Below, piece by piece: positions 410 through 60,158 of a stretch of DNA of 64,000 bases. How positions within the stretch are numbered: the first letter of the stretch is position 1; the number at the start of each line of letters is the position of its first letter. The notes under the pieces were generated by a model. The model saw only the letters and a list, made by a program, of their open reading frames with translations, had not been told where the DNA came from and did no database searches. The stretch is from a virus. Its lineage: Duplodnaviria; Caudoviricetes. A program made the translations under genes and the position numbers. The DNA lies in IMG/VR virus record IMGVR_UViG_3300032007_000001. One strand, written 5' to 3'.

Positions 410-862
410 TTAATATCCCATTTCTAAAAGATATTCTTTCTTTTTATACATTTTTGGATTTGAAAGAAATTGATTATATTCATTCTTAAAATCGTATTCT
501 TGTAAGAATTTGCAAAAGTATGTAGCAGCTTTATCAACGTATAATCTATATAATAATTCTTTTATTTGTTTGTTAAATTTATTTTCATATGAGAACTTAA
601 ATTTGTAATTATCGTCTTCATCTATAAAAATTTTAATGTTGTTCATATCATATCTGTCATAAAAAATCATTAAAAACAAAGCTGTTGGGTGTTGGTTATT
701 AAAATTTTTAAATTCAGCATTAATGCCAAAATGATTGAATAAAATCGATTGTTTCATTTTGAATTTATCAATACGAATAATTTCTTCTTCCAATATATTT
801 ATTAGAAATTTATGTTCAATTTTTTTCTTAAAGATTTCAAACATATCATAACCCCATGTCAA
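410..862 (-). CDS. Hypothetical protein, C-terminal G-Phi family (ends MGY); likely start 844
   Basis: ORF; C-terminal motif. Confidence 0.6.
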   Translation of the reverse strand: MTWGYDMFEIFKKKIEHKFLINILEEEIIRIDKFKMKQSILFNHFGINAEFKNFNNQHPTALFLMIFYDRYDMNNIKIFIDEDDNYKFKFSYENKFNKQIKELLYRLYVDKAATYFCKFLQEYDFKNEYNQFLSNPKMYKKKEYLLEMGY

Positions 863-1277
863 TCATAGACATTGATTGTATTTGTCGTTCATCCATGTTT
901 TTTAATGATTCATATAATTTCAAATAAGATTTTCCTTCTATAAAGTTTTTTAATGTTTTGACTTCTTCATATGAATATTTATCGCAAACTGAAATAAAAT
1001 TTTTTAAGTCTTTATTGAAGTATTTCATAGATTCATATTGGTCTGGTCTAAAATATGTAGCAGTTGCCAATAAATTATATGTAAAATTGTATTTATTTTT
1101 CTTAAATTCCATTATGACATATATCATAAATCCAATATCTTGATTATTAATTTCAAAACTTAATTCTTTTGTTTTTACATTATAGAACATATCACATTCA
1201 AAATATTTTGGCAAATCAAAAAAGTGTTTTGAATTCAAGATATATAGCAGATTCTTTTGTCTTATGTAATTTATCAT
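846..1277 (-). CDS. Hypothetical protein, C-terminal G-Phi family (ends MGL)
   Basis: ORF with AAGGA RBS. Confidence 0.65.
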   Translation of the reverse strand: MINYIRQKNLLYILNSKHFFDLPKYFECDMFYNVKTKELSFEINNQDIGFMIYVIMEFKKNKYNFTYNLLATATYFRPDQYESMKYFNKDLKNFISVCDKYSYEEVKTLKNFIEGKSYLKLYESLKNMDERQIQSMSMIDMGL

Positions 1278-1342
1278 AGTCTTGTCCTTATTTTTAATTT
1301 AGTAGTTATTTAATTATATAAAAATCATTAGGAAGTGTACAT

Positions 1343-1831
1343 ATGAATATTGTAAAAAATCGTTTAATGAAATTAGCTTCTATAGAAGAAGTAGAAAAAT
1401 ACATGAGTGACAATGGCTATACAAAAGAGGGTCAACATTATAAACAAGAATTTAAGGGATTAGTTGCCACTCCATATGTATCTGAAGTAACAGAGGCATT
1501 AAAAACGAATGATGTAAAATTTACTATGCAAGTAGACATTCAAAATGCTGGTGAACCAAATGAAGAAATTGATGATTTGAATAAAAGTGTAATCATGCAT
1601 GTTACTCATTTGATTGATGCAAGAGTTAATAAGATACATTATTCTATGGCTATAGAAGATACTTTTAACAACATAAAAGATGCTGTAGAAGAAATTAAAA
1701 AAATCACTAAAAATACTATTGACATCAATTACGCAAAAGATGATATTATTAAGTATATGAAGCAAAAGAAAATGTTAAAAGAAGAAACAATAGATAATTG
1801 CGTCAATGATAATTTCTATGCTTATATATGA
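1343..1831 (+). CDS. Hypothetical protein with MNIVKNRLMKLA leader
   Basis: ORF, RBS, followed by terminator. Confidence 0.7.
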   Translation: MNIVKNRLMKLASIEEVEKYMSDNGYTKEGQHYKQEFKGLVATPYVSEVTEALKTNDVKFTMQVDIQNAGEPNEEIDDLNKSVIMHVTHLIDARVNKIHYSMAIEDTFNNIKDAVEEIKKITKNTIDINYAKDDIIKYMKQKKMLKEETIDNCVNDNFYAYI

Positions 1832-1833
1832 TT

Positions 1834-1860
1834 AAAAGAGACCATATTGGTCTCTTTTTT
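1834..1860. terminator. Bidirectional intrinsic terminator
   Basis: AAAAGAGACC-ATATT-GGTCTCTTTTTT between convergent genes. Confidence 0.75.
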
Positions 1861-1944
1861 ATTTCTTCATTTCCACTATCATTATTTTTTTCATCATCAA
1901 AATGAAATAAAAAAATGATAGTAAATGAATACTATCACCATTTT

Positions 1945-2340
1945 TTATAATCCGTGTGTTGTTTTTAATATTTTTTTTGTTTGCTCTAAATTTAGATTAT
2001 CAAATATTTCATACCAATGATTGAAATCAATTGCATTAAATATTTCATCAAACAAATCATCATGTGAAAATATTTTTTTTGAATCTATAGGTATATGAAA
2101 AACTCTGCATTTTCTAGTATATCCTTCATTGTAACTATACGTTATTAAAAAATATTTATATTTTTTTGTTATCATTATTTCTTTATGGTCATTATTTAAT
2201 GAACGTATAACACAATCTGTTTTGTTTGAATAAAAATCTCTCCGTATGTAAAAATAAAAGTTTTTTACTAAAAAATCAGAATTTCTTGTTTGTTTTAAGA
2301 AACACAGATTTTGTCGTATAACGATAAAATTATTTGACAT
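1945..2340 (-). CDS. Hypothetical protein, G-Phi family (ends HGL)
   Basis: ORF directly after the PurA-like gene. Confidence 0.6.
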   Translation of the reverse strand: MSNNFIVIRQNLCFLKQTRNSDFLVKNFYFYIRRDFYSNKTDCVIRSLNNDHKEIMITKKYKYFLITYSYNEGYTRKCRVFHIPIDSKKIFSHDDLFDEIFNAIDFNHWYEIFDNLNLEQTKKILKTTHGL

Positions 2341-2343
2341 AAT

Positions 2344-3528
2344 TTATAGTTCCTTGCTAAGAATATCTAATGGATAAATTATTTTTTTATCTTCTATAAA
2401 ATCACTTTGCATTTCTTTTAAGTTAATGATTTGGTCATCGGGGATTTGCCAGTTGCCAGTCATTTTTTTATTTGTCGTATCCCACCAAGACACAAAGTAC
2501 ATTGGCTTATCTACATTAATATCGTTTTCAATATATTTCTTAAAGTCATTTTCTGTTCTTTCTTTTAATTTATCATCCATAATACTGCAACGAATACTTC
2601 CTTGCCAATCGTTGTTTATATTCGTTGTATCAAATCTTTTTACTATCTCCATGGCTTTTTCATTGAAAGTAGCATTAAATGGGCCGGCGCCATGTTTCGT
2701 CAAATATGTTCTTGTACAATACACAGGAATAGTCTTTTCTTTTTCAAGACCATTTCTTAAAATAATATTGATTGGATTAGTAGAGTCAGTTTTTGAAGGT
2801 GTAGTATGTGGATAGGATTCTTCGTTATCTTCATCAAGCAATAATCCCTGTGCATTTTCAAAAATAAAATTATCATAATCCTTAAATAAAGATTTTTCTT
2901 CTTTTATAAGATACACTTTAGGATTATTCAACGATTTATCCAATTCTTCATAAAAGTCATCCATAGCCAAAGCCAAATTTATATCTTTGAATTGTTCAGG
3001 TATTCTTCTATTTATTTCTATCATTGCTTGTTCAAACCCATAAAAGTGTTGAATCAAACTTTTCGTAAATTCTCTTCTTTGCGAAAATGACATTTTTTGC
3101 AGTGTTCCAATACTCATAGGAAGTCTTTGACTTCTTATTTTTGTCGCAAAAATGCCCATGCCGCAAGACCCATGTCTATCTTTTGAACGTATCGTTTCAA
3201 TAAGATGATTCATAAGAATGTCTATTGGTGTAGTGATTCTACATTTTTCATTAATAAAAACGTCTGGAGAATAAGTCTTTGATTTTTTTTCGTATTCATC
3301 ATTAAAAGAGAAAGGATTGAAAATGAATGTATTTGCTAAATACGTAGGAATTGGAGCAGAACACAACGAATGATGTATAAATCCATAACTCGTATGTCCA
3401 GCTTGACAACCGCCATTGTGTTTAATTCCAAGGACGTAGTGGGCTGCAAGATTGTCTTTTATATATCTAACTGCGCGCCCTTTTCCTTCATCACCGTAGT
3501 TACTTCCAATCACTATGTAATTGCTCAT
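2344..3528 (-). CDS. Adenylosuccinate synthetase-like protein (divergent PurA family)
   Basis: GSNYGDEGKG P-loop, GGCQAGHT, FENAQGLLLD, YPHTTPS, YLTKHGAGPF. Confidence 0.85.
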   Translation of the reverse strand: MSNYIVIGSNYGDEGKGRAVRYIKDNLAAHYVLGIKHNGGCQAGHTSYGFIHHSLCSAPIPTYLANTFIFNPFSFNDEYEKKSKTYSPDVFINEKCRITTPIDILMNHLIETIRSKDRHGSCGMGIFATKIRSQRLPMSIGTLQKMSFSQRREFTKSLIQHFYGFEQAMIEINRRIPEQFKDINLALAMDDFYEELDKSLNNPKVYLIKEEKSLFKDYDNFIFENAQGLLLDEDNEESYPHTTPSKTDSTNPINIILRNGLEKEKTIPVYCTRTYLTKHGAGPFNATFNEKAMEIVKRFDTTNINNDWQGSIRCSIMDDKLKERTENDFKKYIENDINVDKPMYFVSWWDTTNKKMTGNWQIPDDQIINLKEMQSDFIEDKKIIYPLDILSKEL

Positions 3529-3546
3529 TTTCAATCCTTCTTCCAA

Positions 3547-4885: not shown

Positions 4886-4897
4886 TGTTTTTCCTCC

Positions 4898-5923: not shown

Positions 5924-5949
5924 TCCTTCATCTCCTTTATATAAGAAGT

Positions 5950-5978
5950 ATTCTATATCAATGCAAATAAAAAGTAAA
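5950..5978 (-). promoter_or_regulatory. Sigma-A-like promoter TTTACT-17-TAGAAT
   Basis: Consensus match upstream of the J-kinase/vWA/PurA-like genes. Confidence 0.55.
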
Positions 5979-6019
5979 TAATGTATTACAAATAATGAAA
6001 AAATGGGCATTATGCCCAT

Positions 6020-23016: not shown

Positions 23017-23046
23017 AAAAAGGTAGGATTTGTTCCTACCTTTTTT
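23017..23046 (+). terminator. Intrinsic terminator
   Basis: AGGTAGGA-TTTGT-TCCTACCT followed by a T-run. Confidence 0.75.
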
Positions 23047-23047
23047 A

Positions 23048-23076
23048 TTTACAAATATTGAAAAACAATGTATAAT
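23048..23076 (+). promoter_or_regulatory. Sigma-A-like promoter TTTACA-17-TATAAT
   Basis: Consensus match. Confidence 0.65.
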
Positions 23077-23095
23077 GTGTTCGGAGGCGACTAAC

Positions 23096-23584
23096 ATGAC
23101 ATATGACTCAGAAATAACAAGACGCAGAAATAGAGTAAATATAGATATTCTTGATAAAAAAACTGGATTAATTATATTTCGTCACAATGTATCAAAAGAA
23201 GCATTTGAAAAACACGAAAATGAAATTTTTGATACATTAAATAAAACGTTGGAAAAAAGAGAATTTTTAATTAATTCTTTAGAAAAAAAAGGTTTCAAAC
23301 GTGTAAGAAAAAATACGTATGAAATGAAAACAAAAATAAATAACAATAAATATAAAATCAATCAAAAAACAAGAATATGTTTGACAGTTATCAATCATGT
23401 AAGAAAAAAGACATCAATAAATCAGCAATATGATTATATGTTTGTTCAATTTTTGTTTGACGAAAACGTTTTATATAAAAAGACATATATATTCAAGGTA
23501 TCAGAAGAAGATATTTTAATAATGAATGAAAACGATTTATTTGAAAAATATCTTGAGATAGAAAAAATAAAAACCGGATTATGA
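23096..23584 (+). CDS. Hypothetical protein, G-Phi family (ends TGL)
   Basis: GGAGG RBS fixes the start at 23096. Confidence 0.65.
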   Translation: MTYDSEITRRRNRVNIDILDKKTGLIIFRHNVSKEAFEKHENEIFDTLNKTLEKREFLINSLEKKGFKRVRKNTYEMKTKINNNKYKINQKTRICLTVINHVRKKTSINQQYDYMFVQFLFDENVLYKKTYIFKVSEEDILIMNENDLFEKYLEIEKIKTGL

Positions 23585-30965: not shown

Positions 30966-31289
30966 TTATAAACCATTTCGTTTGATAAGTTTTTTCTTAA
31001 AATGTCTTAAATAATCGTTTATGCAATTTCTTTCTTTCAAAATAAAATCAATTTTTCCAAAATGAAAATTTTTACATTTTTCATAATTGTGACATAAATA
31101 ATTTTCTATTTTGTTTGAATAAATAGGAACCATAAACGATAAAATTCCCTTACTGAAATTAGACTTAAAATAATTGTTTTTACTTAAGTTAATATAACTA
31201 GCATGAATTATAAAAAAATCGCCATATTTATATTCATCAACGTAAATTCTCAATGCCTTTGAAGCATTTATAAAACATTTGAGACTCAA
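30966..31289 (-). CDS. Hypothetical protein, G-Phi family (ends NGL)
   Basis: GAGGTG RBS, TTG start. Confidence 0.6.
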   Translation of the reverse strand: MSLKCFINASKALRIYVDEYKYGDFFIIHASYINLSKNNYFKSNFSKGILSFMVPIYSNKIENYLCHNYEKCKNFHFGKIDFILKERNCINDYLRHFKKKLIKRNGL

Positions 31290-36683: not shown

Positions 36684-36974
36684 TTATAGTCCTTTTCTTC
36701 TTTTTATTTGTTCTTTTTCATATATGTCATATAATTGTTTCAATAAATCTAATTTTTTTGCTTTTATTTTATTGTCTTCTGCTACTCTTTCTACATAACA
36801 CGGTGAACCATGATAAGATATATCTTCCTTGAAGCAAACTTTATCATCTTTTACATATAAAATATTTATATCGCTTCTTTCACCAAACTCATTGTGAAAG
36901 ATATGTTCTATCATTTCCAATTCTGACATTTGGATTTCTATATTTTTAATTATAGCATTTGTTGTTATATACAT
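36684..36974 (-). CDS. Hypothetical protein, G-Phi family (ends KGL)
   Basis: GGAGG RBS upstream. Confidence 0.6.
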   Translation of the reverse strand: MYITTNAIIKNIEIQMSELEMIEHIFHNEFGERSDINILYVKDDKVCFKEDISYHGSPCYVERVAEDNKIKAKKLDLLKQLYDIYEKEQIKRRKGL

Positions 36975-37145: not shown

Positions 37146-37151
37146 ATAAAA

Positions 37152-37227: not shown

Positions 37228-37232
37228 ATAAA

Positions 37233-37907: not shown

Positions 37908-37996
37908 TGGCGGAGTGGGTGGGATTTGAACCCACGCAGGATTTCTCCTCTAACGATTTAGCAAACCGTCCTCTTCAACCACTTGAGTACCACTCC
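37908..37996 (-). tRNA. tRNA-Ser(GCT)
   Basis: Long variable arm; TT-GCT-AA. Confidence 0.92.
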
Positions 37997-38002
37997 ATGT
38001 TA

Positions 38003-38078
38003 TGGTGGAGACAAGGGGAATCGAACCCCTGACCTCTTGCTTGCAAGGCAAGTGCTCTCCCAGTTGAGCTATGTCCCC
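38003..38078 (-). tRNA. tRNA-Ala(TGC)
   Basis: G3:U70; CT-TGC-AA. Confidence 0.95.
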
Positions 38079-38082
38079 ATTA

Positions 38083-38173
38083 TGGCGGATGGGGAGGGAT
38101 TCGAACCCCCGCGCGCTTTGCGACGCCTATCGGTTTTCAGGACCGAACTCTTCAGCCACTTGAGTACCCATCC
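38083..38173 (-). tRNA. tRNA-Ser(TGA)
   Basis: Long variable arm; loop CC-TGA-AA (C33). Confidence 0.88.
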
Positions 38174-38178
38174 ATATA

Positions 38179-38255
<77 letters not shown>

Positions 38256-38482: not shown

Positions 38483-38746
38483 TTACAAACCAAATTCAAA
38501 AATAAATTTATTTTTCAAAGTAAGATTTTCATTAAAAATAAATTTATCTAAAATTTTCAAAATTGGAATTACTTTATCTTTTTTTCTTAAATAGGAAAAC
38601 ACTTCGTCCAAAAACGAAATATCCAACGTATGTTTTCTAACAATTCTAACGCAATCTTTTACAGAAACAATTTTTAGAAAATATAAAATTGTATCAGATA
38701 AAATTAATTCGTTATGCATATCAATCATCAAATAAAAGAATCGCAA
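38483..38746 (-). CDS. Hypothetical protein, G-Phi family (ends FEFGL)
   Basis: C-terminus paralogous to 38835; start uncertain. Confidence 0.5.
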   Translation of the reverse strand: MRFFYLMIDMHNELILSDTILYFLKIVSVKDCVRIVRKHTLDISFLDEVFSYLRKKDKVIPILKILDKFIFNENLTLKNKFIFEFGL

Positions 38747-38834: not shown

Positions 38835-39119
38835 TCATAATCCAAATTCAAAAACGAAATGATTCTGAAGTTCGATATTTTTCTTATTAAATAAATTATA
38901 GAAAAAAGTAATAATTTTATGTTTTCTCTTTTCAATTATATATTGATAAATTTCATCCATCAATGACCATTTGGTAGTAAACTCCAAAATGGAAAAATTG
39001 TTAATATAAAAAATAATTGTATTTGATGGTTCTTCATTGTGACACAACAAATATTGCATCATATGATGATTATTTTCAGAAAATTGTCTCATTATATAAC
39101 CACTCATGCAAAACACCAA
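38835..39119 (-). CDS. Hypothetical protein, G-Phi family (ends FEFGL)
   Basis: C-terminus paralogous to 38483; start uncertain. Confidence 0.5.
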   Translation of the reverse strand: MVFCMSGYIMRQFSENNHHMMQYLLCHNEEPSNTIIFYINNFSILEFTTKWSLMDEIYQYIIEKRKHKIITFFYNLFNKKNIELQNHFVFEFGL

Positions 39120-40719: not shown

Positions 40720-41091
40720 GTGAGAGAAAAATACACAGATGATGATTTGAAAATTAAAATGCGTTGCGTGGAGAACATAAATCATTTTTATAATGAAATC
40801 ACATATTTTGTATATTTTACAATTTCTCTCACAAATGATAAAAGCAAAAAAATAAGTGGGATTATAGATTTCCATAATCTTATTTATAATTGTTGCGGCC
40901 ATTATGGACCATATAAGCTATATATAGAAAGAAATATTGATAATAGTTTGAATTCATTTTTACTCGGTTCTGCTAAAGCTAAAGATTTTGATTTTGTTAC
41001 ATACTTAAAAAACAATTATAATGAAAAAATAAAAGATGTCATCTCTTGTTTCATTATAAATAAAGTTTCAAAAATAATGTTTGGATTTTGA
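40720..41091 (+). CDS. Hypothetical protein, G-Phi family (ends FGF)
   Basis: GAGGAG RBS. Confidence 0.6.
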   Translation: MREKYTDDDLKIKMRCVENINHFYNEITYFVYFTISLTNDKSKKISGIIDFHNLIYNCCGHYGPYKLYIERNIDNSLNSFLLGSAKAKDFDFVTYLKNNYNEKIKDVISCFIINKVSKIMFGF

Positions 41092-41175: not shown

Positions 41176-41505
41176 ATGCAAATTCAATTTAATGGTATTA
41201 CTGGAGAATTGAATATAGAAAGAGAACCAAGTCCATTTGCAAGAAATCATCTCAAACTTTCTTATGAATTTAGAAATAAATCGGAACAAATAAAAAATTG
41301 GTTTTATTTGGACCGCATGAAAGAATACATTTTTGGAAAAGAAAATTTCATTAGTAATTTTATGATATCGTTATTTGTAATAAAGAATCTACATGAAGAT
41401 AAAAAATTATATCGTGATTTAACTCAAAATAAAAGATTTGAATTATGTCAAGAATTACATAGATATTTCAAAACATATTTAGCTTTGGTGTATGTGGGGC
41501 TTTAA
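41176..41505 (+). CDS. Hypothetical protein, G-Phi family (ends VGL)
   Basis: Paralogue of 41508 (LNI..E.S.FAR). Confidence 0.65.
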   Translation: MQIQFNGITGELNIEREPSPFARNHLKLSYEFRNKSEQIKNWFYLDRMKEYIFGKENFISNFMISLFVIKNLHEDKKLYRDLTQNKRFELCQELHRYFKTYLALVYVGL

Positions 41506-41507: not shown

Positions 41508-41846
41508 ATGGATATAAGATTTGAAGATATTACGTTAAAATTGAATATAAAAAAAGAAACTAGTCGTTTTGCTAGAGGACAAAATAGATTGGATTGGGAA
41601 ATGAAAAACGACCGTGGTGAAGAATTGAAAAGTTATTTTTACTTAAAAGACATAAGAAAATATTTGTTTGGTTATAGCGAAAGTTTTAGAAGCGATTTTG
41701 AAAGGTCTTTTTATGGGATTATAAATGATTCAAATAGAAACATGCAATTATATAAAGACATAATTTGGAATAAAAGAGATAAGTTTTATGATGCTATAGG
41801 CAATTATTTTATCGAATATCTTGCATTAAGGTCGATTGGGTTTTGA
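41508..41846 (+). CDS. Hypothetical protein, G-Phi family (ends IGF)
   Basis: Paralogue of 41176. Confidence 0.65.
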   Translation: MDIRFEDITLKLNIKKETSRFARGQNRLDWEMKNDRGEELKSYFYLKDIRKYLFGYSESFRSDFERSFYGIINDSNRNMQLYKDIIWNKRDKFYDAIGNYFIEYLALRSIGF

Positions 41847-42165
41847 TATGCAATTTAGAAAAAATATAAAAAATTTCCTAAATATGTTGGTTATTTCATA
41901 CAAAATGTACGATGATAAAAATAATTTGAAATATGTTGGAAACGTAATTGAACGAAAAGACATGTGTTATGAAAATATTACTATTGGAATAATGCATGAA
42001 AATACATTTAACAACTGTGTTAGGGAATTTGAAATGATTAAAAAAGATATAGTTCCAACTGCAAAAAGTTTATCAAAAGGAACGAATATATCTTTAAGTC
42101 ATGCGATTGAGTTTATTCAATTTTTATTGAAAGATGATTTGTTTATAAAAACAAGAGGATTGTAA
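41836..42165 (+). CDS. Hypothetical protein, G-Phi family (ends RGL)
   Basis: ORF in array. Confidence 0.6.
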   Translation: MGFDMQFRKNIKNFLNMLVISYKMYDDKNNLKYVGNVIERKDMCYENITIGIMHENTFNNCVREFEMIKKDIVPTAKSLSKGTNISLSHAIEFIQFLLKDDLFIKTRGL

Positions 42166-42802: not shown

Positions 42803-43105
42803 ATGAATTTTAAGAACAAAAAAATATATAAAATTGATAACAAATATATTGCTATCAAATATTATTTGTATGAAGGAGACAATAAAATATATATTATTAT
42901 GTCTAAGAATAAATGTTTTGCTGAACACATGCATGGAGAATATTCTTTTGAAACGCCAACAATCGATGATATGTATTTGCACAACCTAAAAATAGAAAAG
43001 GATTTTTACATAACTGGGAAAGATGTTGGATTAAGAGATTTATTAAGATTAAATGTTGTTGTTAACGATTTTGTAAAATCATTGAATATATATTTTGGTT
43101 TGTAG
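42803..43105 (+). CDS. Hypothetical protein, G-Phi family (ends FGL)
   Basis: AAGGAG RBS. Confidence 0.65.
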   Translation: MNFKNKKIYKIDNKYIAIKYYLYEGDNKIYIIMSKNKCFAEHMHGEYSFETPTIDDMYLHNLKIEKDFYITGKDVGLRDLLRLNVVVNDFVKSLNIYFGL

Positions 43106-43848: not shown

Positions 43849-44160
43849 ATGAAGAAGACGATTCAGATAAATAAAACGGCATTTATTGATTTTATTCTTA
43901 TAAAAAATAAAGTTGTGAATTCATATCTTGATTGTTATACAATAAAATATTTTATTTACTGTAATGAGGGTGTAATTACAAAAGGTGATATAAACGTTTT
44001 TTCATTAAGAGATATTATTTTTGGAAAAACTGATTTATGCATTAAATTTATACATTCTACATCATATAAGGAATTAGCAAAAATTGATTATAAAACATAC
44101 ATTTTCAGTGCGATTCAAGAATATAGAAAATATATGATTAAAAGGTTTATAGGATATTAA
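43849..44160 (+). CDS. Hypothetical protein, G-Phi family (ends IGY)
   Basis: Paralogue of 44162. Confidence 0.6.
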   Translation: MKKTIQINKTAFIDFILIKNKVVNSYLDCYTIKYFIYCNEGVITKGDINVFSLRDIIFGKTDLCIKFIHSTSYKELAKIDYKTYIFSAIQEYRKYMIKRFIGY

Positions 44161-44161: not shown

Positions 44162-44488
44162 ATGAAAGAAATGACAATTCCAATAAACGAAAAAACGAAT
44201 ATATATTTAAGCTTAAATAAATTTAGAACAAATCATATTAGAAATTATTTGTTTGAATATAAAATTTTTGATAAAAAAGAATCAATATCTGGTAGTATTG
44301 GTTCTTTTTCTATAAATGAATTTTCTTTTGAAAATATAAATTTGCATGGACATTTCTTAGAATCTATATATATGAAATCACCCAAAACTGAAAAAATTTA
44401 TGATACTATAATAAGTGAAAAACATAATATTTATAGAGCAATGCTTTTATATAGAAGATTTATAATTAAAATGAATATTGGGTTGTGA
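44162..44488 (+). CDS. Hypothetical protein, G-Phi family (ends IGL)
   Basis: Paralogue of 43849. Confidence 0.6.
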   Translation: MKEMTIPINEKTNIYLSLNKFRTNHIRNYLFEYKIFDKKESISGSIGSFSINEFSFENINLHGHFLESIYMKSPKTEKIYDTIISEKHNIYRAMLLYRRFIIKMNIGL

Positions 44489-44712: not shown

Positions 44713-44993
44713 AAAAAATGATAAAAGAAAAAGACATTATAATGTTCAATACTTTAATGAAACAATTAAATGATTTACAAGAAAAAATAAAAGATTATAA
44801 TCAAAACGCTTCTATAAATTTGTTTTCGTGTTGTGATAAAAATGAGAATGATTATTGTGCTCTATTTATAACAGATGGAAATGTCAAAGAAATAAAAAAT
44901 ATATTTATCACTGGCAAAAAATTAGAAAACGCAGAATTCTATAGTAGAAGTGATATAAAAACATTGATAGAAAATATAAAGGAAAAATTATGA
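44709..44993 (+). CDS. Hypothetical protein
   Basis: ORF in gene run. Confidence 0.55.
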   Translation: MKKMIKEKDIIMFNTLMKQLNDLQEKIKDYNQNASINLFSCCDKNENDYCALFITDGNVKEIKNIFITGKKLENAEFYSRSDIKTLIENIKEKL

Positions 44994-45313
44994 ATACAAC
45001 CATGCAAATTAATGATATTATAATAGAAATTGATATCATTAAAAATGGTGCAATAAGAATATATTACACTATTTATGATGGAAAAGACATTATAAAAAAT
45101 TGGTTTGTTTGTGAAGAATTACATAGATATATGTCCTGTTGGGAAAATATGTTCTATTGGGAAAGTATGGTTAATGCTTTTTTAAGAAATTTAAGTATTT
45201 ATTATGAACGACCAATATATAAAAAAATCAAATATAATAATGATTATTTGGTATTTTTAAGCGAATTGGAAAAATTTTTCGATAAATATGTAAGAATATG
45301 TTGTGGATTATAA
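44990..45313 (+). CDS. Hypothetical protein, G-Phi family (ends CGL)
   Basis: ATGA overlap. Confidence 0.6.
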   Translation: MNTTMQINDIIIEIDIIKNGAIRIYYTIYDGKDIIKNWFVCEELHRYMSCWENMFYWESMVNAFLRNLSIYYERPIYKKIKYNNDYLVFLSELEKFFDKYVRICCGL

Positions 45314-45570: not shown

Positions 45571-45909
45571 ATGGTAGCACATATAGGTGGGAAAAAATGC
45601 AAAGTAAACGCTTCTTTCAAAGACAACAATGATTGCTATTCTGATTTATTTAGATTATTAGTCGTAATTACTGGGAATAGATATAACAATGATAATGACG
45701 GTGAAAGATTTTCGTTTTCTTTTGTATTGCCAAGAAATGTAAATAAAATAAAACAATATATAGATGCATCAATTTATTTGAATGTTGGATTAATAAGAAC
45801 TTCATGTAGTCAACAACATATGAAAATGTTTTTATTGGAACATAAAAATGAAATTGCAAATTTGGCTATAAAATCTTATATATATGGAATTAAAAAACAT
45901 GGGATGTAA
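45571..45909 (+). CDS. Hypothetical protein, G-Phi family (ends HGM)
   Basis: GAGGAG RBS. Confidence 0.6.
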   Translation: MVAHIGGKKCKVNASFKDNNDCYSDLFRLLVVITGNRYNNDNDGERFSFSFVLPRNVNKIKQYIDASIYLNVGLIRTSCSQQHMKMFLLEHKNEIANLAIKSYIYGIKKHGM

Positions 45910-46973: not shown

Positions 46974-47381
46974 ATGAAAACAAAAATTGTTCGAAAAAAT
47001 GAAAAAGATATTGAAATTAAGGTTTTGTTTAGTGGAGAAACTAATGCAAAAGTATTTATTAAGATTCAATATGATGAAATTTATATAAGAGAACCATCAA
47101 AGTACCACACTCTTTTATTTAATTTCTATTTTTTCAGAGATTTTTTACAAAAGATAGACGAACATGTATATAATGTAATACTTTATCATTTTTTGAAAAA
47201 GAAAGATAAAAAAGTAGATGATGAAACAATTTCCCAAAATTTTTTTTGGACAGAAAATGGAGAAGAGGAATGTAATGAACACAACAATCATTTACAAACA
47301 TTCATATTAGATAGAATAGACGTTATAACAAATTCATTAAAAGATGCTTATTTATTAACAATACGTAAGAATGGTTTTTAA
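46974..47381 (+). CDS. Hypothetical protein, G-Phi family (ends NGF)
   Basis: ORF. Confidence 0.6.
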   Translation: MKTKIVRKNEKDIEIKVLFSGETNAKVFIKIQYDEIYIREPSKYHTLLFNFYFFRDFLQKIDEHVYNVILYHFLKKKDKKVDDETISQNFFWTENGEEECNEHNNHLQTFILDRIDVITNSLKDAYLLTIRKNGF

Positions 47382-47800: not shown

Positions 47801-48112
47801 ATGATTAACTTAAAAAATATAAGAATAAAAAATCACGAATATAAAATTTTTAATGATGAACAATATAATGCAACCATTTATTACGAAATTGATTATAAAG
47901 AAATGGAATTTAAGAATTTTGTTCTTGCTGATACAATAAAATTTTCTCATGATAAATTTAAGAAAAGAGTCCTTGGATCTTTGCATAAATTTTCAAATTA
48001 TGTTGAATTTTGGTTTTTTGTTCAAAAACATATAGATGCAATTGCATTCGAACTAGCTTTTGTAACTGGTAAAAAACTTAAACACTATGAAATAAGTAAT
48101 GATGGATTATAG
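47801..48112 (+). CDS. Hypothetical protein, G-Phi family (ends DGL)
   Basis: GGAG RBS. Confidence 0.6.
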   Translation: MINLKNIRIKNHEYKIFNDEQYNATIYYEIDYKEMEFKNFVLADTIKFSHDKFKKRVLGSLHKFSNYVEFWFFVQKHIDAIAFELAFVTGKKLKHYEISNDGL

Positions 48113-48858: not shown

Positions 48859-49185
48859 GTGATAATGATGAAAAATAAAAAAATGTTAGGAACATTAACA
48901 ATTGAAAACATCATTAATGACGCAATTTATAAAAATGGAAAAATTGGATTTTGCGATGCTGAAAACGTTATGATGATTTTCATTACATTGGAGAATATGC
49001 AATTTTTCGTTATTGGAATGTATGAATTACTTACACATGATAGATATGATAAAACGTCAAAAGATTCAATGTTTGAAGTATATACTAATGAAGAAAAACA
49101 TTTTTTAACTATAAATAAATACAAAATTTTAACGTCTATCAACAATTTCTTAAAAAGTTACTATAAATTAAAAGGCGGCATATAA
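48859..49185 (+). CDS. Hypothetical protein, G-Phi family (ends GGI)
   Basis: ORF. Confidence 0.55.
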   Translation: MIMMKNKKMLGTLTIENIINDAIYKNGKIGFCDAENVMMIFITLENMQFFVIGMYELLTHDRYDKTSKDSMFEVYTNEEKHFLTINKYKILTSINNFLKSYYKLKGGI

Positions 49186-49186: not shown

Positions 49187-49477
49187 ATGTTCTTAAAGAA
49201 TACTAATAAAAATCCTGATTTTATTGAGTATAGTGAACATTTTTATATAAAAAACATTTATATTAACGTTAATTATCAACCAAATAGACATACATATAAT
49301 CTTTATTATAAAATAGATTCGATTTATAATATTATGAGATATACATTAAAATTGTTTGACAAAAAAATGTTTGATAAATACGCAAAAGGATATATTCATT
49401 TATGCGATATAAAAGAAGAAATATATGAAAAAATCTTAGAACAAAAAAATTTCATTGTAAATAAATTTGGATATTAA
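49187..49477 (+). CDS. Hypothetical protein, G-Phi family (ends FGY)
   Basis: ORF. Confidence 0.55.
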   Translation: MFLKNTNKNPDFIEYSEHFYIKNIYINVNYQPNRHTYNLYYKIDSIYNIMRYTLKLFDKKMFDKYAKGYIHLCDIKEEIYEKILEQKNFIVNKFGY

Positions 49478-49489: not shown

Positions 49490-49792
49490 ATGCAATCGGA
49501 AATAACATCATTACAAATTTCATTATCTTCAAATAATTATAAAAGCGATTATATCAATTTAGTACAAATCAATAATGTAGATATAGATGTAGACATTCTT
49601 ACATTTACTGGTCATATTTTTTTAGATTATTGGTTTGATTTTTCTATTGATATGACACATAAAATGTATGAAAAGACTTCGCGCCAAGAAGTTGTTGATG
49701 CTATTTATAATTCTTTTTATAAAGGAAAATTACACAATATATTGTGTGGCGTTGTTGAAATAGCAAATAAAAACACAATAGAAATAAAATGA
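49490..49792 (+). CDS. Hypothetical protein
   Basis: AAAGGAG RBS. Confidence 0.6.
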   Translation: MQSEITSLQISLSSNNYKSDYINLVQINNVDIDVDILTFTGHIFLDYWFDFSIDMTHKMYEKTSRQEVVDAIYNSFYKGKLHNILCGVVEIANKNTIEIK

Positions 49793-50082
49793 AATTCAAA
49801 GATAAAAGCAAAAACAAAATAATCATTACAAATATAGAAATTGCATATGATAATCCAAAATATTTAGAGATAAAAATAATTGACGAAAACAAAAAATCAT
49901 TTAAGTTTTATGCTCATATTTTTAATATTTTTGGAATCAACGTATGCACAGATGCTTTTGCAAGTTTGAAACAAAAATTAAAAGAACAATCGATTTATAT
50001 AGAAAATGATTTTAAGAGAATGATAAAAGTACACATAAAAGAATTTATGATGAAAAATAGTATTTATTTCATTGGATTATGA
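49789..50082 (+). CDS. Hypothetical protein, G-Phi family (ends IGL)
   Basis: ATGA overlap. Confidence 0.6.
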   Translation: MKFKDKSKNKIIITNIEIAYDNPKYLEIKIIDENKKSFKFYAHIFNIFGINVCTDAFASLKQKLKEQSIYIENDFKRMIKVHIKEFMMKNSIYFIGL

Positions 50083-50252
50083 ATAAAGAAACAATCATAG
50101 AAATACTTGAAAATGAAATCAATTGCGTTAAAGCTGCAGAATATTGCACCAGAGAATGTAATAAATGTTTTCTCGTTAAAAAGCCTGAAGACATTATAAA
50201 TGCTTTAACTGTAGCTATAAAAACATTGGAGAAAAACTATGGAATTGATTGA
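50079..50252 (+). CDS. Small Cys-containing hypothetical protein (57 aa)
   Basis: Not in ORF track; MNKETIIEILENEINCVKAAEYCTRECNKC...; ATGA overlap. Confidence 0.55.
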   Translation: MNKETIIEILENEINCVKAAEYCTRECNKCFLVKKPEDIINALTVAIKTLEKNYGID

Positions 50253-50595
50253 TGTAAAAATATTGAAATCGCATTATCAATTTACTTTTTTACACAATAG
50301 TAAGAAAAGTAATAATGTATATAATATTTTTATTTTCATCAAAAAAAATGGATTAATTAAAATAGGTAAACGCACTACTTATCATTCTGATGATATTTTT
50401 TTAAGTGCAACATGTTATTCATTTAGATATGGGAGAAGCGAATCGTATAAATGTTATTTTGACTTATCAAAACAACAAATGGATGATATAGCAAATACGT
50501 TGAAATATGAACTTGGTTTATATAAAAGAAGCACAAAAAAGATGTTGAATATATTCTTAAATCACGAACTTACGAAAAAAGTTGTTGGACTTTGA
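50239..50595 (+). CDS. Hypothetical protein, G-Phi family (ends VGL)
   Basis: GGAG RBS. Confidence 0.6.
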   Translation: MELIDVKILKSHYQFTFLHNSKKSNNVYNIFIFIKKNGLIKIGKRTTYHSDDIFLSATCYSFRYGRSESYKCYFDLSKQQMDDIANTLKYELGLYKRSTKKMLNIFLNHELTKKVVGL

Positions 50596-52449: not shown

Positions 52450-52525
52450 GCGACTGTAACTCAGTTGGTAGAGTAACTGACTTTTAATCAGTAAGTCGTG
52501 GGTTCAAGTCCCACCAGTCGCACCA
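52450..52525 (+). tRNA. tRNA-Lys(TTT)
   Basis: ACTGA CT-TTT-AA TCAGT; promoter at 52405-52432. Confidence 0.93.
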
Positions 52526-55903: not shown

Positions 55904-56521
55904 ATGTTAGGAGCATGGGAAGTAAAAGTTAGTACTAGCGGTATGCCGCAGAAAGTAGCAACTGCATTTGACCAGCTTAATGAAATGGTTGGTGCTGAAT
56001 ATACTTTTGTAGCATATCTTGGTAGTCAGGTTGTGAATGGCACTAATCATGCTGTTCTCGCAGAACAGACTATCGTCGCTGGCAAAGACACAAAGAATGC
56101 CGTAGTTGTTATTTTCCGCGAAACCAAGGAAGGCGTAGCACTTTCTGGTATTGAACGCGTTCTTGAAACCGGCGGAGAACTTGGTGGAATTAAAGTAGAC
56201 GTTACTACTAATATTCCAGCAGAAGCAAAAGATGCTTTCACTACGACTATGGAAGGATTTGTTGGATGCAAGATTGAATTGATTGCTCTCCTTGGAACAC
56301 AGATGACAAAGGGCAATAACTATATCTTCGCTGCAACTTCAACAAGTGTTACACCAGAACCTGAAACAAAAGTTTGCATGATTACAGTCAATCCAATGAC
56401 TAAGGACATTGCATTTGCAGATTTGCTCGCAGCAAAACATGATGTTATGTCACTTGGTTATGCATTTACTTGGTTGAAACGCGGTACATCCTTTGGTGCA
56501 CCTCTTGGCGAATGGCCATGA
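55904..56521 (+). CDS. Tandem cystatin-like-repeat protein ending PLGEWP
   Basis: LGSQVVNGTNH and LGTQMTKGNNY repeats. Confidence 0.6.
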   Translation: MLGAWEVKVSTSGMPQKVATAFDQLNEMVGAEYTFVAYLGSQVVNGTNHAVLAEQTIVAGKDTKNAVVVIFRETKEGVALSGIERVLETGGELGGIKVDVTTNIPAEAKDAFTTTMEGFVGCKIELIALLGTQMTKGNNYIFAATSTSVTPEPETKVCMITVNPMTKDIAFADLLAAKHDVMSLGYAFTWLKRGTSFGAPLGEWP

Positions 56522-56534
56522 TAGGAGAAACATT

Positions 56535-56708
56535 ATGTCTGATATTCAAGAATATAACCAAATTGACATTGAAAACGATTCATTGACTGTTGTAAGAGCA
56601 AAGATTGAAGCAATTGCAAAATCTCTTCGTAATCGCGCAGCAAACAACAGTAATGAATCAGAAGAAATCAATAATATGCTTAGTAAACCGCTTGGTGAAT
56701 GGCCTTAA
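56535..56708 (+). CDS. Small protein ending KPLGEWP
   Basis: AGGAG RBS fixes the start; paralogue of the next gene. Confidence 0.7.
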   Translation: MSDIQEYNQIDIENDSLTVVRAKIEAIAKSLRNRAANNSNESEEINNMLSKPLGEWP

Positions 56709-56724
56709 TTAAAGGAGAATAATT

Positions 56725-57006
56725 ATGGCAAATATTCCAGAGTATAATCAAATTGATATTGATAACGATTCACTAGTAGTAATTACGGCTAAAATAGAAG
56801 CACTTGCCAAAGCACTTCGTCAACGCGCTGAAAAGACTACTAATGAAAAAGAAAAATCATATCTAAAAACAATTCTTTCAAAACCATTGATTCAATTAAG
56901 TCCTGAAGCTAAAGGCGAAGTAATTGAGCCAGTAGAACCAATTCAAAAAGAAGAAATTCTTGGAAATCCTGGGTCAGTACTTGGAAAACCACTTGCAGAA
57001 TGGTAA
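56725..57006 (+). CDS. Small protein ending KPLAEW
   Basis: EYNQIDI.NDSL.V..AKIEA.AK.LR.RA shared with the previous gene. Confidence 0.7.
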   Translation: MANIPEYNQIDIDNDSLVVITAKIEALAKALRQRAEKTTNEKEKSYLKTILSKPLIQLSPEAKGEVIEPVEPIQKEEILGNPGSVLGKPLAEW

Positions 57007-57640: not shown

Positions 57641-57717
57641 TGGCAGAGGCGGTAGGAGTCGGACCTACGAATATTCGGGTCAAAGCCGAACGTGTTCAAC
57701 CACTTCACCACGCCCCT
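57641..57717 (-). tRNA. tRNA-Gln(TTG), atypical
   Basis: TTCGG CT-TTG-AC CCGAA; A1:U72; T-loop TCCGAC. Confidence 0.8.
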
Positions 57718-57757
57718 ATTTTAAGTATGCAATTTGTATAAATGTTTTGTTTTTAAT

Positions 57758-57834
57758 TGGAGCGTACAGTTGGATTTGAACCAACGAATAACGGTTTTGC
57801 AGACCGTGCCCTTAGACCACTTGGGTATGTACGC
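57758..57834 (-). tRNA. tRNA-Cys(GCA)
   Basis: CT-GCA-AA; U73. Confidence 0.92.
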
Positions 57835-57836
57835 AT

Positions 57837-57914
57837 TGGCTCCCGAGGTAGGACTCGAACCTACGACCTACGGTTTAACAGACCGTTGCTAACCACCAGC
57901 TGAGCTACTCGGGA
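57837..57914 (-). tRNA. tRNA-Asn(GTT)
   Basis: CT-GTT-AA; U1:A72, G73. Confidence 0.92.
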
Positions 57915-57919
57915 ATATT

Positions 57920-58005
57920 TGGTTGGTCGGGTAGGATTTGAACCTACGAAGGATTACTCCGCGTGATTTACAGTCACGATGCTTTAACCACTTGCATACC
58001 GGCCA
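57920..58005 (-). tRNA. tRNA-Tyr(GTA)
   Basis: CT-GTA-AA; long variable arm. Confidence 0.88.
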
Positions 58006-58067: not shown

Positions 58068-58083
58068 TATTTTTTTATGAAAA

Positions 58084-58356
58084 TCAAAGACCAAATGTTG
58101 TTATAATTATTTTTTTGCTATTAAAAATTTTTTTTATGATTTCATCTTCAAAAGAATATGTCCAATGTTTATTATTTTTTCTAAAGTGTCTCTTCAATTC
58201 TTTTTTATCAAACATTTTGCACGGTTCGAATAAAAAATTAGTTGTATTATCCATAAAAAATGCTATTTGATAATTCATTACAACAAGATAGCAATCTAAA
58301 TAAAATTTTATACCATGTATTTCAAATGTATGATAATACTTCATTTTTATTCTCAT
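58084..58356 (-). CDS. Hypothetical protein, G-Phi family (ends FGL)
   Basis: ORF in array. Confidence 0.6.
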   Translation of the reverse strand: MRIKMKYYHTFEIHGIKFYLDCYLVVMNYQIAFFMDNTTNFLFEPCKMFDKKELKRHFRKNNKHWTYSFEDEIIKKIFNSKKIIITTFGL

Positions 58357-58601
58357 AATCCAATCTTTTCCAATAAAACACCCTTAAATATTGAAATGGC
58401 GAAGTCACTATTATCTGGATTTAGTTCTTCTATATATCCATCTTGACTTGTTGAAAATGAAAAATTATCATAATTAAAAATTATTTCTACTTTTTTGTTA
58501 TTTACATAAACCATACCGCCTATAATGCGTTTTTGCCTCGTATAAAATTCATAAAAATTAAAATTCATTATGTCATATGGCATATCAATATCCCACTTCA
58601 A
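58353..58601 (-). CDS. Hypothetical protein, G-Phi family (ends IGL)
   Basis: ORF in array. Confidence 0.55.
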   Translation of the reverse strand: MKWDIDMPYDIMNFNFYEFYTRQKRIIGGMVYVNNKKVEIIFNYDNFSFSTSQDGYIEELNPDNSDFAISIFKGVLLEKIGL

Positions 58602-58821
58602 TCATAAAATATTTTTTTCTATCTTCTACAACAAGAGCGCATGGACCAACAAATCTATAACTACTAAAATAATCAAAAATCTCGTCAAAGATTGTATCTT
58701 TTTCTAATGCACGACATAAATCTTTTGATGATTTTGGATAAACGTTAAGAGCTAATCTATTTAATTGTTTATTTTGAGTTAAAATAAAATCAATATATGA
58801 TTGGTAGCTTATAATCTTCAT
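58585..58821 (-). CDS. Hypothetical protein, G-Phi family (ends VGY)
   Basis: ATGA overlap with the upstream stop fixes the start at MKIISYQ. Confidence 0.6.
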   Translation of the reverse strand: MKIISYQSYIDFILTQNKQLNRLALNVYPKSSKDLCRALEKDTIFDEIFDYFSSYRFVGPCALVVEDRKKYFMIEVGY

Positions 58822-59174
58822 GTAATTTTCCATTCTCCGTCTGGACGCATTTTCGCTAAAGCTAAAAGTTGATTTAATGCTCGTTTCGCATTGCCTTCTG
58901 TAGCATTCCAATAATTGGAATCCACATTATCTTTAAGTTTATTGATAGCACTTTGAAGAATTGGAATTGAATCAACAGCCGACATACCTTCAATTTTATG
59001 AATTCCGTCTTTACCCATCACTTTTTGGAAAATACTGCTATAATTATATGTAATATTTAACCACATTTCTTTCGTACCACCAACAACATATGTCCCACCG
59101 GTCATGAGATGCTCTGTAGTGGTCTCTAACACTTCTTTTGTTACTGGGTCAATAAGATACATGTCGTAACTCAT
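58818..59174 (-). CDS. Hypothetical phage protein
   Basis: MSYD...LNITYNYS...YWNATEGNAKRAL; GAAAGGAG RBS. Confidence 0.7.
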   Translation of the reverse strand: MSYDMYLIDPVTKEVLETTTEHLMTGGTYVVGGTKEMWLNITYNYSSIFQKVMGKDGIHKIEGMSAVDSIPILQSAINKLKDNVDSNYWNATEGNAKRALNQLLALAKMRPDGEWKIT

Positions 59175-59192
59175 AATGCATTCTCCTTTCCC

Positions 59193-59549
59193 TTATAGCC
59201 CTATTCTTTGGATTAAATTTAATCTTTTATAAAAATTCTTAACAACTTCTATAATTGCATTTTTTTCTTCATTAGTAAAGTAATCTTTTATAGTTTTTAA
59301 GATATATTTTTTTGTAAAAATATCATATTCATCTAATGTTTCGCAATATTCTTTCCCATTACATTTTACAATCAAATCACTTGTATAAATTTTCCTAAGT
59401 GCTATACCAAATGTATTGATACGCATTGTTCTCAATATACCTAAGTTAATTATTACAAGTATATTTCTATTTTCGCGAATAACGTAACTTCCAGTAAATT
59501 GTCCATGATTACTGGAGAATGATTTTTCTTGTACTTTATAGTCCATCAT
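59193..59549 (-). CDS. Hypothetical protein, G-Phi family (ends IGL)
   Basis: ORF in array. Confidence 0.6.
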   Translation of the reverse strand: MMDYKVQEKSFSSNHGQFTGSYVIRENRNILVIINLGILRTMRINTFGIALRKIYTSDLIVKCNGKEYCETLDEYDIFTKKYILKTIKDYFTNEEKNAIIEVVKNFYKRLNLIQRIGL

Positions 59550-59820
59550 GCAAAACCTTTTTATAAAATGATTGACGAATGATTTTATCTATCCATTTAT
59601 AATATCTAGCAAAGACTATCTTTCTTTTTAGATTCATTCTTTGAGATATTCTTTTCATATCATTAAAGTAGTCGTTATTGTATCTTATGACAATAGTTTC
59701 TCTAAAAGAATCGTTTAAGATAAAAACTGCATAAATTTTATTAAATTCATATTTTTCGCTGAGCAATAGATTTATTTTCAATTGTATGTCATTGTTTTTC
59801 AAAGAAAAAATTTCTTTCAT
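59536..59820 (-). CDS. Hypothetical protein, G-Phi family (ends DGL)
   Basis: ORF in array. Confidence 0.6.
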   Translation of the reverse strand: MKEIFSLKNNDIQLKINLLLSEKYEFNKIYAVFILNDSFRETIVIRYNNDYFNDMKRISQRMNLKRKIVFARYYKWIDKIIRQSFYKKVLHDGL

Positions 59821-60158
59821 AATCCGTTAACTCCAATAAAATTATTGTAGTATTTATGCAAAATATCTATAATTTCTTTATTCGAATTTATGAGGTATCT
59901 TTGTGCTATTGGGTCTAAATTTGAATTTTTGATTTCAATGAATAGATATTGTGATAAGAAATTTATGAAATTTGGAAACAAAATAAATGTAAAGATAGCA
60001 TTGTATTGATAAGAATGACCATCATGATATGGCACATAAGTTGTTACTTGCATATATATTTTATCTATTGATGGGTCGAAACTGTTTTTAAGTCTTAGAA
60101 AAATAGTTTTATTGATATTTTCGCTGACTTCAAATTCCATAAAAATCACCAAATACAT
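59817..60158 (-). CDS. Hypothetical protein, G-Phi family (ends NGL)
   Basis: First gene after the promoter at 60157-60185 (TTTACA-17-TACAAT); true start probably slightly downstream. Confidence 0.6.
   Translation of the reverse strand: MYLVIFMEFEVSENINKTIFLRLKNSFDPSIDKIYMQVTTYVPYHDGHSYQYNAIFTFILFPNFINFLSQYLFIEIKNSNLDPIAQRYLINSNKEIIDILHKYYNNFIGVNGL

Follow-up and report, generated by a model that had tools for sequence, protein, structure and literature searches.

A glycine-hydrophobe C-terminus shared by thirty small proteins of a ruminant-gut megaphage resembles a Schellman helix cap

The virus record IMGVR_UViG_3300032007_000001 (IMG/VR; Caudoviricetes) includes a stretch of 64,000 nucleotides, here called the window and meaning the whole of the DNA analyzed, in which 30 small open reading frames (ORFs) encode highly divergent proteins that all end in glycine followed by one hydrophobic residue, most often leucine. 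We call these the GL genes, name each by its first coordinate, and list them in Table 1. Their shared end, the selection that maintains it and the structure that it may form are the subject of this report.

The source of the window is a ruminant-gut megaphage of 504 kb from the cattle gut. A 504,277-bp contig in an ENA metagenome assembly also encodes one of the window proteins; according to their records, the sequencing runs that contain the window stretch are gut metagenomes of cattle and sheep; and the nearest cultured relatives, judged by the RNA ligase, are Bacillus jumbo phages including phage G; the assignment rests on these three observations. The window has a G+C content of 27% and carries 12 transfer RNA (tRNA) genes in four groups (37071-37306, 37908-38255, 52450-52525 and 57641-58005) as well as one transfer-messenger RNA (tmRNA). 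Besides the GL genes, it encodes a T4 Rnl1-type RNA ligase, a tail-collar protein, an amidase with a VgrG3-like C-terminal domain, a DHH phosphoesterase, several radical SAM enzymes, a PurA-like enzyme and a methyl-accepting chemotaxis protein.

Thirty small genes with a glycine-hydrophobe end

A simple greedy call gives 112 ORFs in the window. Twenty-nine of these end in Gly followed by Leu, Phe, Tyr, Met or Ile, and a 30th (58585-58821) is masked in the greedy call by an overlap of 94 nt. The 30 tails comprise 21 that end GL, four GY, three GF and one each GM and GI, on proteins of 78-218 amino acids (aa), and the residue before the Gly (position -3, counting the last residue as -1) is Met, Phe, Val, Ile or Cys in 19 of them, including four IGL, four FGL and two VGL tails. 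These counts exactly reproduce those of a preliminary description of the window made from the letters alone. The set is defined by its tail, so that Gly in 30 of 30 proteins is true by construction; measured against the internal frequency of G-hydrophobe dipeptides (1.67%), the C-terminal enrichment has a binomial P of 4e-26. Shadow-frame ORFs show nothing of the kind: one of 108 has a G-hydrophobe end, and that one is the 30th gene itself.

The tail is restricted both by size and by place. It occurs on 29 of the 75 ORFs of 60-230 aa and on none of the 30 ORFs longer than 230 aa, in agreement with the earlier statement that no recognizable enzyme ends this way, and its carriers form the two clusters that had been described, making up 18 of the 32 ORFs at 38.5-50.6 kb and six of the seven at 58.1-60.2 kb. 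The same script applied to Bacillus phage G finds six G-hydrophobe ends among 685 ORFs, none of them GL (P = 0.99), and four among 180 (P = 0.47) in a 100-kb IMG/VR contig of a relative whose RNA ligase is 39% identical (G001; L031-L035). Since neither relative shows it, the excess is specific to this phage lineage and not a general trait of AT-rich giant phages.

A C-terminally anchored profile of the 30 proteins extends the pattern beyond the last two residues. Position -1 is Leu in 21 and otherwise Tyr, Phe, Met or Ile; positions -3 and -6 are each hydrophobic in about 62% of the proteins, as are -7 and -8; position -4 is mostly polar, and positions -9 and -10 are mostly polar and Lys-rich. 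A hydrophobic residue stands at -3 or -6 in 26 of the 30 tails and at both in 13. The small ORFs without a GL end in these arrays may include relatives that have lost it.

A shared end of this kind might be a nucleotide-level artifact, in which the GG of the Gly codon belongs to the Shine-Dalgarno site of the next gene or to some other RNA signal at gene ends. To look for such signals, we read the 45 nt downstream of every stop. In about 11 of the 30 tails the next start codon lies within 0-4 nt without any other Shine-Dalgarno site, and because 10 of these 11 use GGA or GGG, their Gly codon probably doubles as a weak Shine-Dalgarno site. Artifacts of this type do exist: in the IMG/VR relative G001, Gly-Glu is the last dipeptide of eight of 180 ORFs (P = 1.4e-6). 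Of these eight, seven use GGA-GAA or GGA-GAG, thereby spelling a GGAG Shine-Dalgarno, and seven have an ATG 1-7 nt past the stop. That excess stems from the Shine-Dalgarno site of the following gene and serves as a positive control for what such an artifact looks like. The GL tails are unlike it. At least 12 precede a terminator hairpin or promoter-like motif rather than a gene, and seven more precede a gene with its own GGAG or GAGG. Their codons are varied, with four Gly codons (GGA 17, GGG 6, GGT 5, GGC 1) and four Leu codons (TTA 11, TTG 4, CTA 3, CTT 3) in addition to Tyr, Phe, Met and Ile codons, and in the uncoupled tails Gly codon use is near background. Moreover, shadow frames lack the enrichment, and the hydrophobic pattern reaches back to -3, -6 and -7. 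We therefore reject ribosome-binding-site overlap as a general cause, as the preliminary description had already argued from codon variety and from genes with no close downstream neighbor, and give a nucleotide-level origin of the tail next to no credence.

Table 1. Coordinates, strand and C-terminal residues of the 30 GL-type ORFs in the window
Feature	Coordinates	Strand	Remarks
GL-type small ORF	410..862	-	ends EMGY; likely true start ATG one base past upstream stop (~844); terminator hairpin downstream
GL-type small ORF	846..1277	-	ends DMGL; weak similarity to 49187-49477
GL-type small ORF	1945..2340	-	ends THGL; terminator hairpin downstream
GL-type ORF	23030..23584	+	ends KTGL; TTTACA..TATAAT motif 23048-23076 suggests later start (~23096); terminator downstream
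GL-type small ORF	30966..31289	-	ends RNGL; no coupled gene downstream
GL-type small ORF	36684..36974	-	ends RKGL; terminator hairpin downstream
GL-type small ORF	38483..38746	-	ends EFGL; paralog of 38835-39119; followed by promoter-like motif, no gene
GL-type small ORF	38835..39119	-	ends EFGL; paralog of 38483-38746
GL-type small ORF	40720..41091	+	ends MFGF; L037 ortholog ends IFGF (62% identity); terminator downstream
GL-type small ORF, subfamily A founder	41176..41505	+	ends YVGL; AlphaFold2 model pLDDT 87.9
GL-type small ORF	41508..41846	+	ends SIGF; tandem paralog of 41176-41505 (39% identity)
GL-type small ORF	41836..42165	+	ends TRGL; likely start 41848
GL-type small ORF	42803..43105	+	ends YFGL; L037 ortholog ends YFGL (65% identity)
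GL-type small ORF	43849..44160	+	ends FIGY; L037 ortholog ends FIGN, sole loss of last residue
GL-type small ORF	44162..44488	+	ends NIGL; orthologs end TAGL
GL-type small ORF, subfamily A	44990..45313	+	ends CCGL; relatives end CCGL or TNGL
GL-type small ORF	45571..45909	+	ends KHGM; ortholog ends KYGM (~80% identity)
GL-type small ORF	46974..47381	+	ends KNGF; separate Shine-Dalgarno site for next gene
GL-type small ORF	47801..48112	+	ends NDGL
Longest GL-type ORF, 218 aa	48121..48777	+	ends YCGL; ortholog ends NGGL (47% identity); terminator downstream
GL-type small ORF	48859..49185	+	ends KGGI, sole Ile end; preceded by TTTACA..TATAAT motif at 48821
GL-type small ORF	49187..49477	+	ends KFGY; weak similarity to 846-1277 and 58084-58356
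GL-type small ORF	49789..50082	+	ends FIGL; only two close orthologs known; the one retrieved (P0015, alignment A3) ends FIGL
GL-type small ORF	50239..50595	+	ends VVGL; followed by promoter-like motif, no gene
GL-type small ORF	58084..58356	-	ends TFGL; followed by promoter-like motif of tRNA cluster
GL-type small ORF	58353..58601	-	ends KIGL
30th GL-type ORF	58585..58821	-	ends EVGY; long form 58585-58911 overlaps upstream gene; likely start is the ATG overlapping that gene's stop
GL-type small ORF	59193..59549	-	ends RIGL; no relative outside this phage (word-based search, 5.8 billion proteins)
GL-type small ORF	59536..59820	-	ends HDGL
GL-type small ORF	59817..60158	-	ends VNGL

Selection, descent and expression of the GL genes

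The window at 39.9-48.8 kb has syntenic counterparts on two ENA contigs (L037 and L038) from a related phage, which supply eight pairs of GL orthologs at 50-81% identity. The Gly is kept in all eight pairs and the position of the stop codon is identical in all eight, so that the motif does persist among orthologs; the last residue remains hydrophobic in seven, the exception being a change from FIGY to FIGN. The residues before the Gly are free to differ, as in NIGL to TAGL and YCGL to NGGL. The ratio of nonsynonymous to synonymous substitution rates (dN/dS) is 0.19-0.46 for the GL genes in these eight pairs versus 0.06-0.37 for six scorable neighbors. The GL ORFs are real, fast-evolving genes under purifying selection, and their end is selected at the protein level.

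The reach of these genes beyond the window is narrow. Five of them form a recognizable subfamily (subfamily A: 41176, 41508, 44990, 44162 and 43849), which in a word-based profile search of 5.8 billion proteins is confined to this phage lineage; HMMER, run exhaustively on 1.84 billion representatives, gives the same limit. All subfamily A members found end in G-L, G-F or G-Y; among them is a member at E = 1e-6 with the end NGL. Two other GL proteins, 49789 and 59193, have almost no relatives, and in IMG/VR neither 41176 nor an exact DNA word brought up a relative. A separate family of 208-217 aa in the same array (42167-42793 in the window, 3547-4185 in L037) ends FGWFL, and a paralog of it in the related phage ends FGVGY; a G-Y end can thus arise or vanish within a family that is otherwise without it.

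Several observations bear on whether the 30 proteins descend from one ancestor. Three pairs are tandem paralogs (41176/41508, 43849/44162 and 38483/38835). When GL proteins are aligned locally with one another after trimming the last three residues, 17 pairs exceed the 99th percentile of a reversed-sequence control versus 4.35 expected (P = 9e-4), and the resulting links join members of different arrays (846, 49187, 58084 and 46974). Strand-type hydrophobic periodicity in the N-terminal part followed by helix-type periodicity in the C-terminal part is present in 20 of 25 GL proteins of 80-140 aa (P = 5e-5), as compared with 53-55% of control small proteins from the window and phage G. The preliminary description had envisaged a library of variable domains joined to a common end. 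Its core stands, in that very divergent small proteins do share a selected end; the tandem paralogs, the strand-then-helix layout and the similarity above the reversed control make one diverged family likelier than a collection of unrelated domains. We consider common descent of all 30 likely.

The GL genes are probably transcribed early and by the host polymerase, as judged from the motifs that precede them. The sequence TTTACA-N15-18-TAWAAT occurs at 11 sites between 14400 and 58067 versus 2.05 expected, and sites lie directly upstream of GL runs (41119 and 48821), of the DHH gene (45959), of the RNA ligase gene and of two tRNA clusters. We regard it as a candidate early-promoter consensus of this phage. 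The sigma-A-like promoters noted previously are borne out for this consensus, several copies of which stand before GL runs, but a generic promoter scan does not rise above shuffled sequence in this AT-rich DNA. One bovine rumen RNA library contains contigs of 179-208 nt that match several GL genes with 0-4 mismatches; DNA carry-over is possible in this library, and we do not use it as evidence.

A helix cap and its competitors

The structural meaning of the tail is best seen in the founder of subfamily A. An AlphaFold2 model of 41176, built from an alignment of 11 sequences, has a mean predicted local distance difference test score (pLDDT) of 87.9 and a predicted template modeling score (pTM) of 0.80. 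It consists of strands at residues 2-5, 8-16, 26-33 and 38-45 followed by helices, the last of which spans 87-106, and V107-G108-L109 lie in coil directly after it (DSSP places the helix end at 106). Gly thus directly follows the last helical turn in this model, which represents one subfamily. A hydrophobic residue, Gly and a second hydrophobic residue at the end of an amphipathic helix recall the helix C-cap known as the Schellman loop, whose "hydrophobic triangle" was reportedly described by Aurora and Rose in 1998. The Schellman loop is the commonest helix C-cap; its positions C3, Ccap and C'' are hydrophobic, with Leu prevalent, and the triangle that they make up is buried in 87% of cases, while Gly occupies C', so that a model peptide of the motif ends A-X-A-A-X-G-X (Mi, Nguyen and Burgess 2023, PMC9951308). 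The tail profile, read as an amphipathic helix followed by X-x-x-X-G-X, matches this pattern: position -1 is hydrophobic in 30 of 30 proteins, and the 26 with a hydrophobic residue at -3 or -6 could supply the rest of the triangle. For the predicted structure of 41176 we assign L104 to C3, V107 to Ccap, G108 to C' and L109 to C''.

We propose, with moderate confidence, that the GL genes encode small alpha/beta early proteins of a single lineage-specific family, expanded in tandem, and that the end which never varies is a Schellman-type helix cap. The 30 ORFs would be diverged members of this family, built of strands in the N-terminal part and helices in the C-terminal part, and tandem duplication would have enlarged it. 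Their end, hydrophobic(-6)-x-x-hydrophobic(-3)-Gly(-2)-Leu/Phe/Tyr(-1)-stop, would constitute the C-cap: the Gly would adopt the left-handed turn that closes the last amphipathic helix, with the 6-to-1 and 5-to-2 backbone hydrogen bonds typical of a Schellman loop, and the final Leu would fold back on -3 and -6, where it is presumably buried, and staple the helix to the core. Because a left-handed Gly and a capping Leu would be hard to replace, this end would survive divergence as the remaining sequence drifts beyond recognition, with the frame stopping just past the cap. What looks like a tag would then be an inherited structural stop signal of the fold rather than an IGF-type plug for ClpP, and a docking role would not be needed.

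The fold itself has no clear match among known structures. With the 41176 model, Foldseek against the PDB gives a best E of 0.02, BFVD a best E of 1.3e-3 at a template modeling score (TM) of 0.36, an Atlas fold search a TM of at most 0.55, and VIA-align against 48,161 PDB chains a best Z of 6.4, within the usual noise. These failed matches are not proof of a new fold. Family searches are similarly silent: Pfam on 20 tail proteins returns only sub-threshold noise and no domain, PHROGs on 10 tail proteins nothing credible, and an ESM Atlas feature search on two tail proteins scores of at most 0.87 and no family. We dropped a Chou-Fasman-type classing of the segment before the Gly, which mislabels the confidently modeled helix of 41176. 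We also set aside a ubiquitin- or Atg8-like precursor, despite the YGL end of GABARAP, given that the 41176 model is not a beta-grasp, and a Pol IV-type sliding-clamp-binding peptide, as the tails lack a Q-L-x-L context.

A number of findings weigh against the helix-cap proposal. Within the 41176 model itself, the last block (residues 101-109) has a mean pLDDT of 79, versus 93-95 in the preceding blocks, and a model of 49789 from a mixed alignment of 35 sequences reaches a pLDDT of only 55.7 and places a strand, not a helix, before its G-L. Common descent is not visible to profile methods: hhalign of tail-trimmed members against subfamily A gives a probability below 2% for all others, and iterating a hidden Markov model (HMM) within the window adds no further members. 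The placement of the tail is also stricter than a cap alone would seem to ask. G-hydrophobe pairs stand at offset 0 from the C-terminus in 29 proteins, never at offsets 1-2, and about once per offset from 3 to 15, even though loss of the stop codon would add a median of only five residues. The GL ends are kept in eight of eight ortholog pairs, versus a changed C-terminus in four of seven non-GL neighbors (one-sided Fisher test, about 0.03). Finally, Ile or Val occupies the last position in one of 30 proteins, versus 38% expected from their share among hydrophobic residues of the proteome (P = 1e-5). The strict terminal place, the fixed ends, the exclusion of Ile and Val and the lower confidence at the end of the model fit a recognized free C-terminus at least as well as they fit a cap.

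These observations keep alive a rival that the preliminary description had listed as a degron: the tail may be an address label or degron whose free C-terminus is gripped by one reader that, for example, destroys early proteins on schedule. We consider this possible but rather doubtful. The reader might be ClpX of the phage itself, a different AAA+ protease or a PDZ-like protein that binds C-terminal peptides, and short C-terminal tags are familiar from ssrA, which is read by ClpX, from the XB peptide of SspB and from PTS1. Such a label would account for the strictly terminal place of the motif, for the stability of GL ends next to neighbors whose ends drift, for the shutting out of beta-branched residues from the last position, for ortholog pairs in which the residues before the Gly change while the G-hydrophobe stays, and for the restriction of the motif to small early-type genes, with no large protein or recognizable enzyme among its carriers. 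The relative phage G, moreover, encodes a full-length ClpP-family protein (187823-188368, L004; 205.8 bits to PF00574). Yet phage G has this ClpP and no G-L ends, a Pfam scan of the 30 larger window proteins finds no PDZ domain, protease or unfoldase, and one ortholog (FIGN) does without the hydrophobic end. In addition, two to three residues straight after a structured helix, as the model predicts, would make a very short and probably partly buried handle, and a Schellman cap fully explains the same pattern. In its most specific form, in which Gly-Leu-COOH is a phage-specific address tag and a single reader removes or delivers the early effectors together, as a proteome-wide timer or delivery route, we rate the idea as tentative and slightly less probable again; the most plausible reader would be the phage's own ClpX-type unfoldase, as a candidate. 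If the tail is read in this way, it would point to a new kind of system by which a virus sorts proteins or degrades them on schedule.

The tail, short and constant on bodies that otherwise differ, might instead be a sorting or packaging label that brings the small proteins into the capsid, to be injected, or into some other compartment built by the phage. The cargo peptides of encapsulins, which bind HK97-fold shells through a hydrophobic-G-S-L core, offer an analogy for such loading, and PTS1 is a further sorting analog. The GL genes, however, lie behind host-type TTTACA..TATAAT motifs together with tRNA clusters and away from recognizable head genes, which suggests early rather than late expression, and the 41176 model has no flexible linker before the tail. 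We think a sorting or packaging label improbable.

The preliminary description favored yet another reading, in which the tail mimics the [LIVM]-G-[FL] loop by which ClpX, ClpA and ClpC plug the hydrophobic pockets of ClpP, and the small proteins act as ClpP adaptors or modulators. There is a superficial match: IGL occurs four times, VGL twice and MGL and IGF also occur, and the last residue is Leu or Phe in 24 of the 30 proteins. The full hydrophobic-Gly-Leu/Phe tripeptide, however, is present in only eight of 30 tails; position -3 is Asn, His, Asp, Thr, Lys, Arg or Gly in 11, and four tails end in Tyr. The known ClpP-docking tripeptides are internal loops, not C-termini, on AAA+ hexamers. The tails by contrast are extreme C-terminal and, in the 41176 model, directly follow a helix rather than forming a flexible loop, and the 20 GL proteins scanned with Pfam contain no AAA+ domain and thus no hexameric body for multivalent docking. 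These comparisons lend no support to the ClpP-docking reading, and we hold it to be very improbable.

Returning to the helix-cap proposal, its acceptance would make the GL genes an extreme case of viral gene-family expansion, in which a quarter of the genes in the window derive from one small fold. They would also exemplify residues that survive unlimited divergence, and would offer a handle on protein families that lie beyond the reach of sequence searches. Whether the end is a cap or is read as a tag, the GL proteins are prime candidates for host-takeover or anti-defense functions in rumen megaphages. The control genomes, the positive control for ribosome-binding-site artifacts, the ortholog and stop-position tests, the exclusion of beta-branched residues and the identification of the Schellman pattern are new here.

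Neighboring genes and known systems

Several genes near the GL arrays deserve mention in their own right. The phage tmRNA (60816-61179, minus strand) encodes the tag peptide DNDYVAIAA and lies beside the second GL cluster. Three consecutive ORFs of 205, 71 and 93 aa on the plus strand (55904-57006) end PLGEWP, PLGEWP and PLAEW, and an ORF on the minus strand (58818-59174) ends PDGEWKIT; these ends may represent another C-terminal motif held in common. Adjoining a tRNA-Lys gene, 52665-54368 (plus strand) encodes the methyl-accepting chemotaxis protein (MCP), in which one Cache sensor domain accompanies an MCP signaling domain (E = 8e-36); this is an unusual auxiliary gene in a phage.

The region 31413-36675 (plus strand) begins with two ORFs whose ends are rich in Cys and Gly (YYYSCSCG and CSCGGGGD), followed by three large proteins of no assigned family, one of which has a weak U32 peptidase match; it also encodes a 330-aa protein with a weak radical SAM match in a precomputed gene table, for which Pfam gave none. 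It has the look of a cluster for modifying peptides and of kinship with the radical SAM operon at 9.4-20.2 kb. On the minus strand, 2344-3546 encodes a divergent adenylosuccinate-synthetase-like protein (Pfam E = 3e-25) whose best PDB matches are ordinary PurA proteins (E = 5e-11); we call it PurA-like from its sequence, and PurA-type and PurZ-type activity are both candidates. The 373-aa product of 4898-6019 (minus strand) matches the J-domain of DnaJ over a short stretch (E = 1e-5, which falls below the Pfam cut-off) and is a possible phage co-chaperone.

Among known systems, the GL tails are closest in pattern to the Schellman loop. The order hydrophobic(C3)-x-x-hydrophobic(Ccap)-Gly(C')-hydrophobic(C''), with Leu preferred, corresponds to tail positions -6, -3, -2 and -1, and the last helix of the 41176 model runs to -4 with V-G-L after it. 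Schellman loops are normally internal, however, joining a helix to the next element, whereas in these 30 proteins the chain stops at C''. Ordinary proteomes do not stop there, as the absence of GL ends from the 685 ORFs of phage G illustrates. The tails also resemble signals that are recognized through a free carboxylate, among them the ssrA and other C-motifs read by ClpX, the XB peptide of SspB, PTS1 (SKL), class II PDZ ligands, the HbYX and GQYL tails together with that of HslU, and encapsulin cargo peptides. Like the GL tails, these are very short, constant and strictly terminal signals with a non-polar last residue that are carried by many different bodies. Unlike them, the GL tail abuts a helix in the 41176 model and can be accounted for by structure; those signals sit on flexible tails and have known readers.

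At the level of gene content, the GL genes recall the lineage-specific families of small early or host-takeover proteins of jumbo phages and giant viruses. They share with these families their small size, tandem arrays, host-type promoter motifs, fast evolution (dN/dS up to 0.46) and lack of relatives beyond a narrow lineage. They differ in that the sequence kinship of most members is no longer detectable and would be marked only by a two-residue end, and in that they cover a quarter of the genes in the window.

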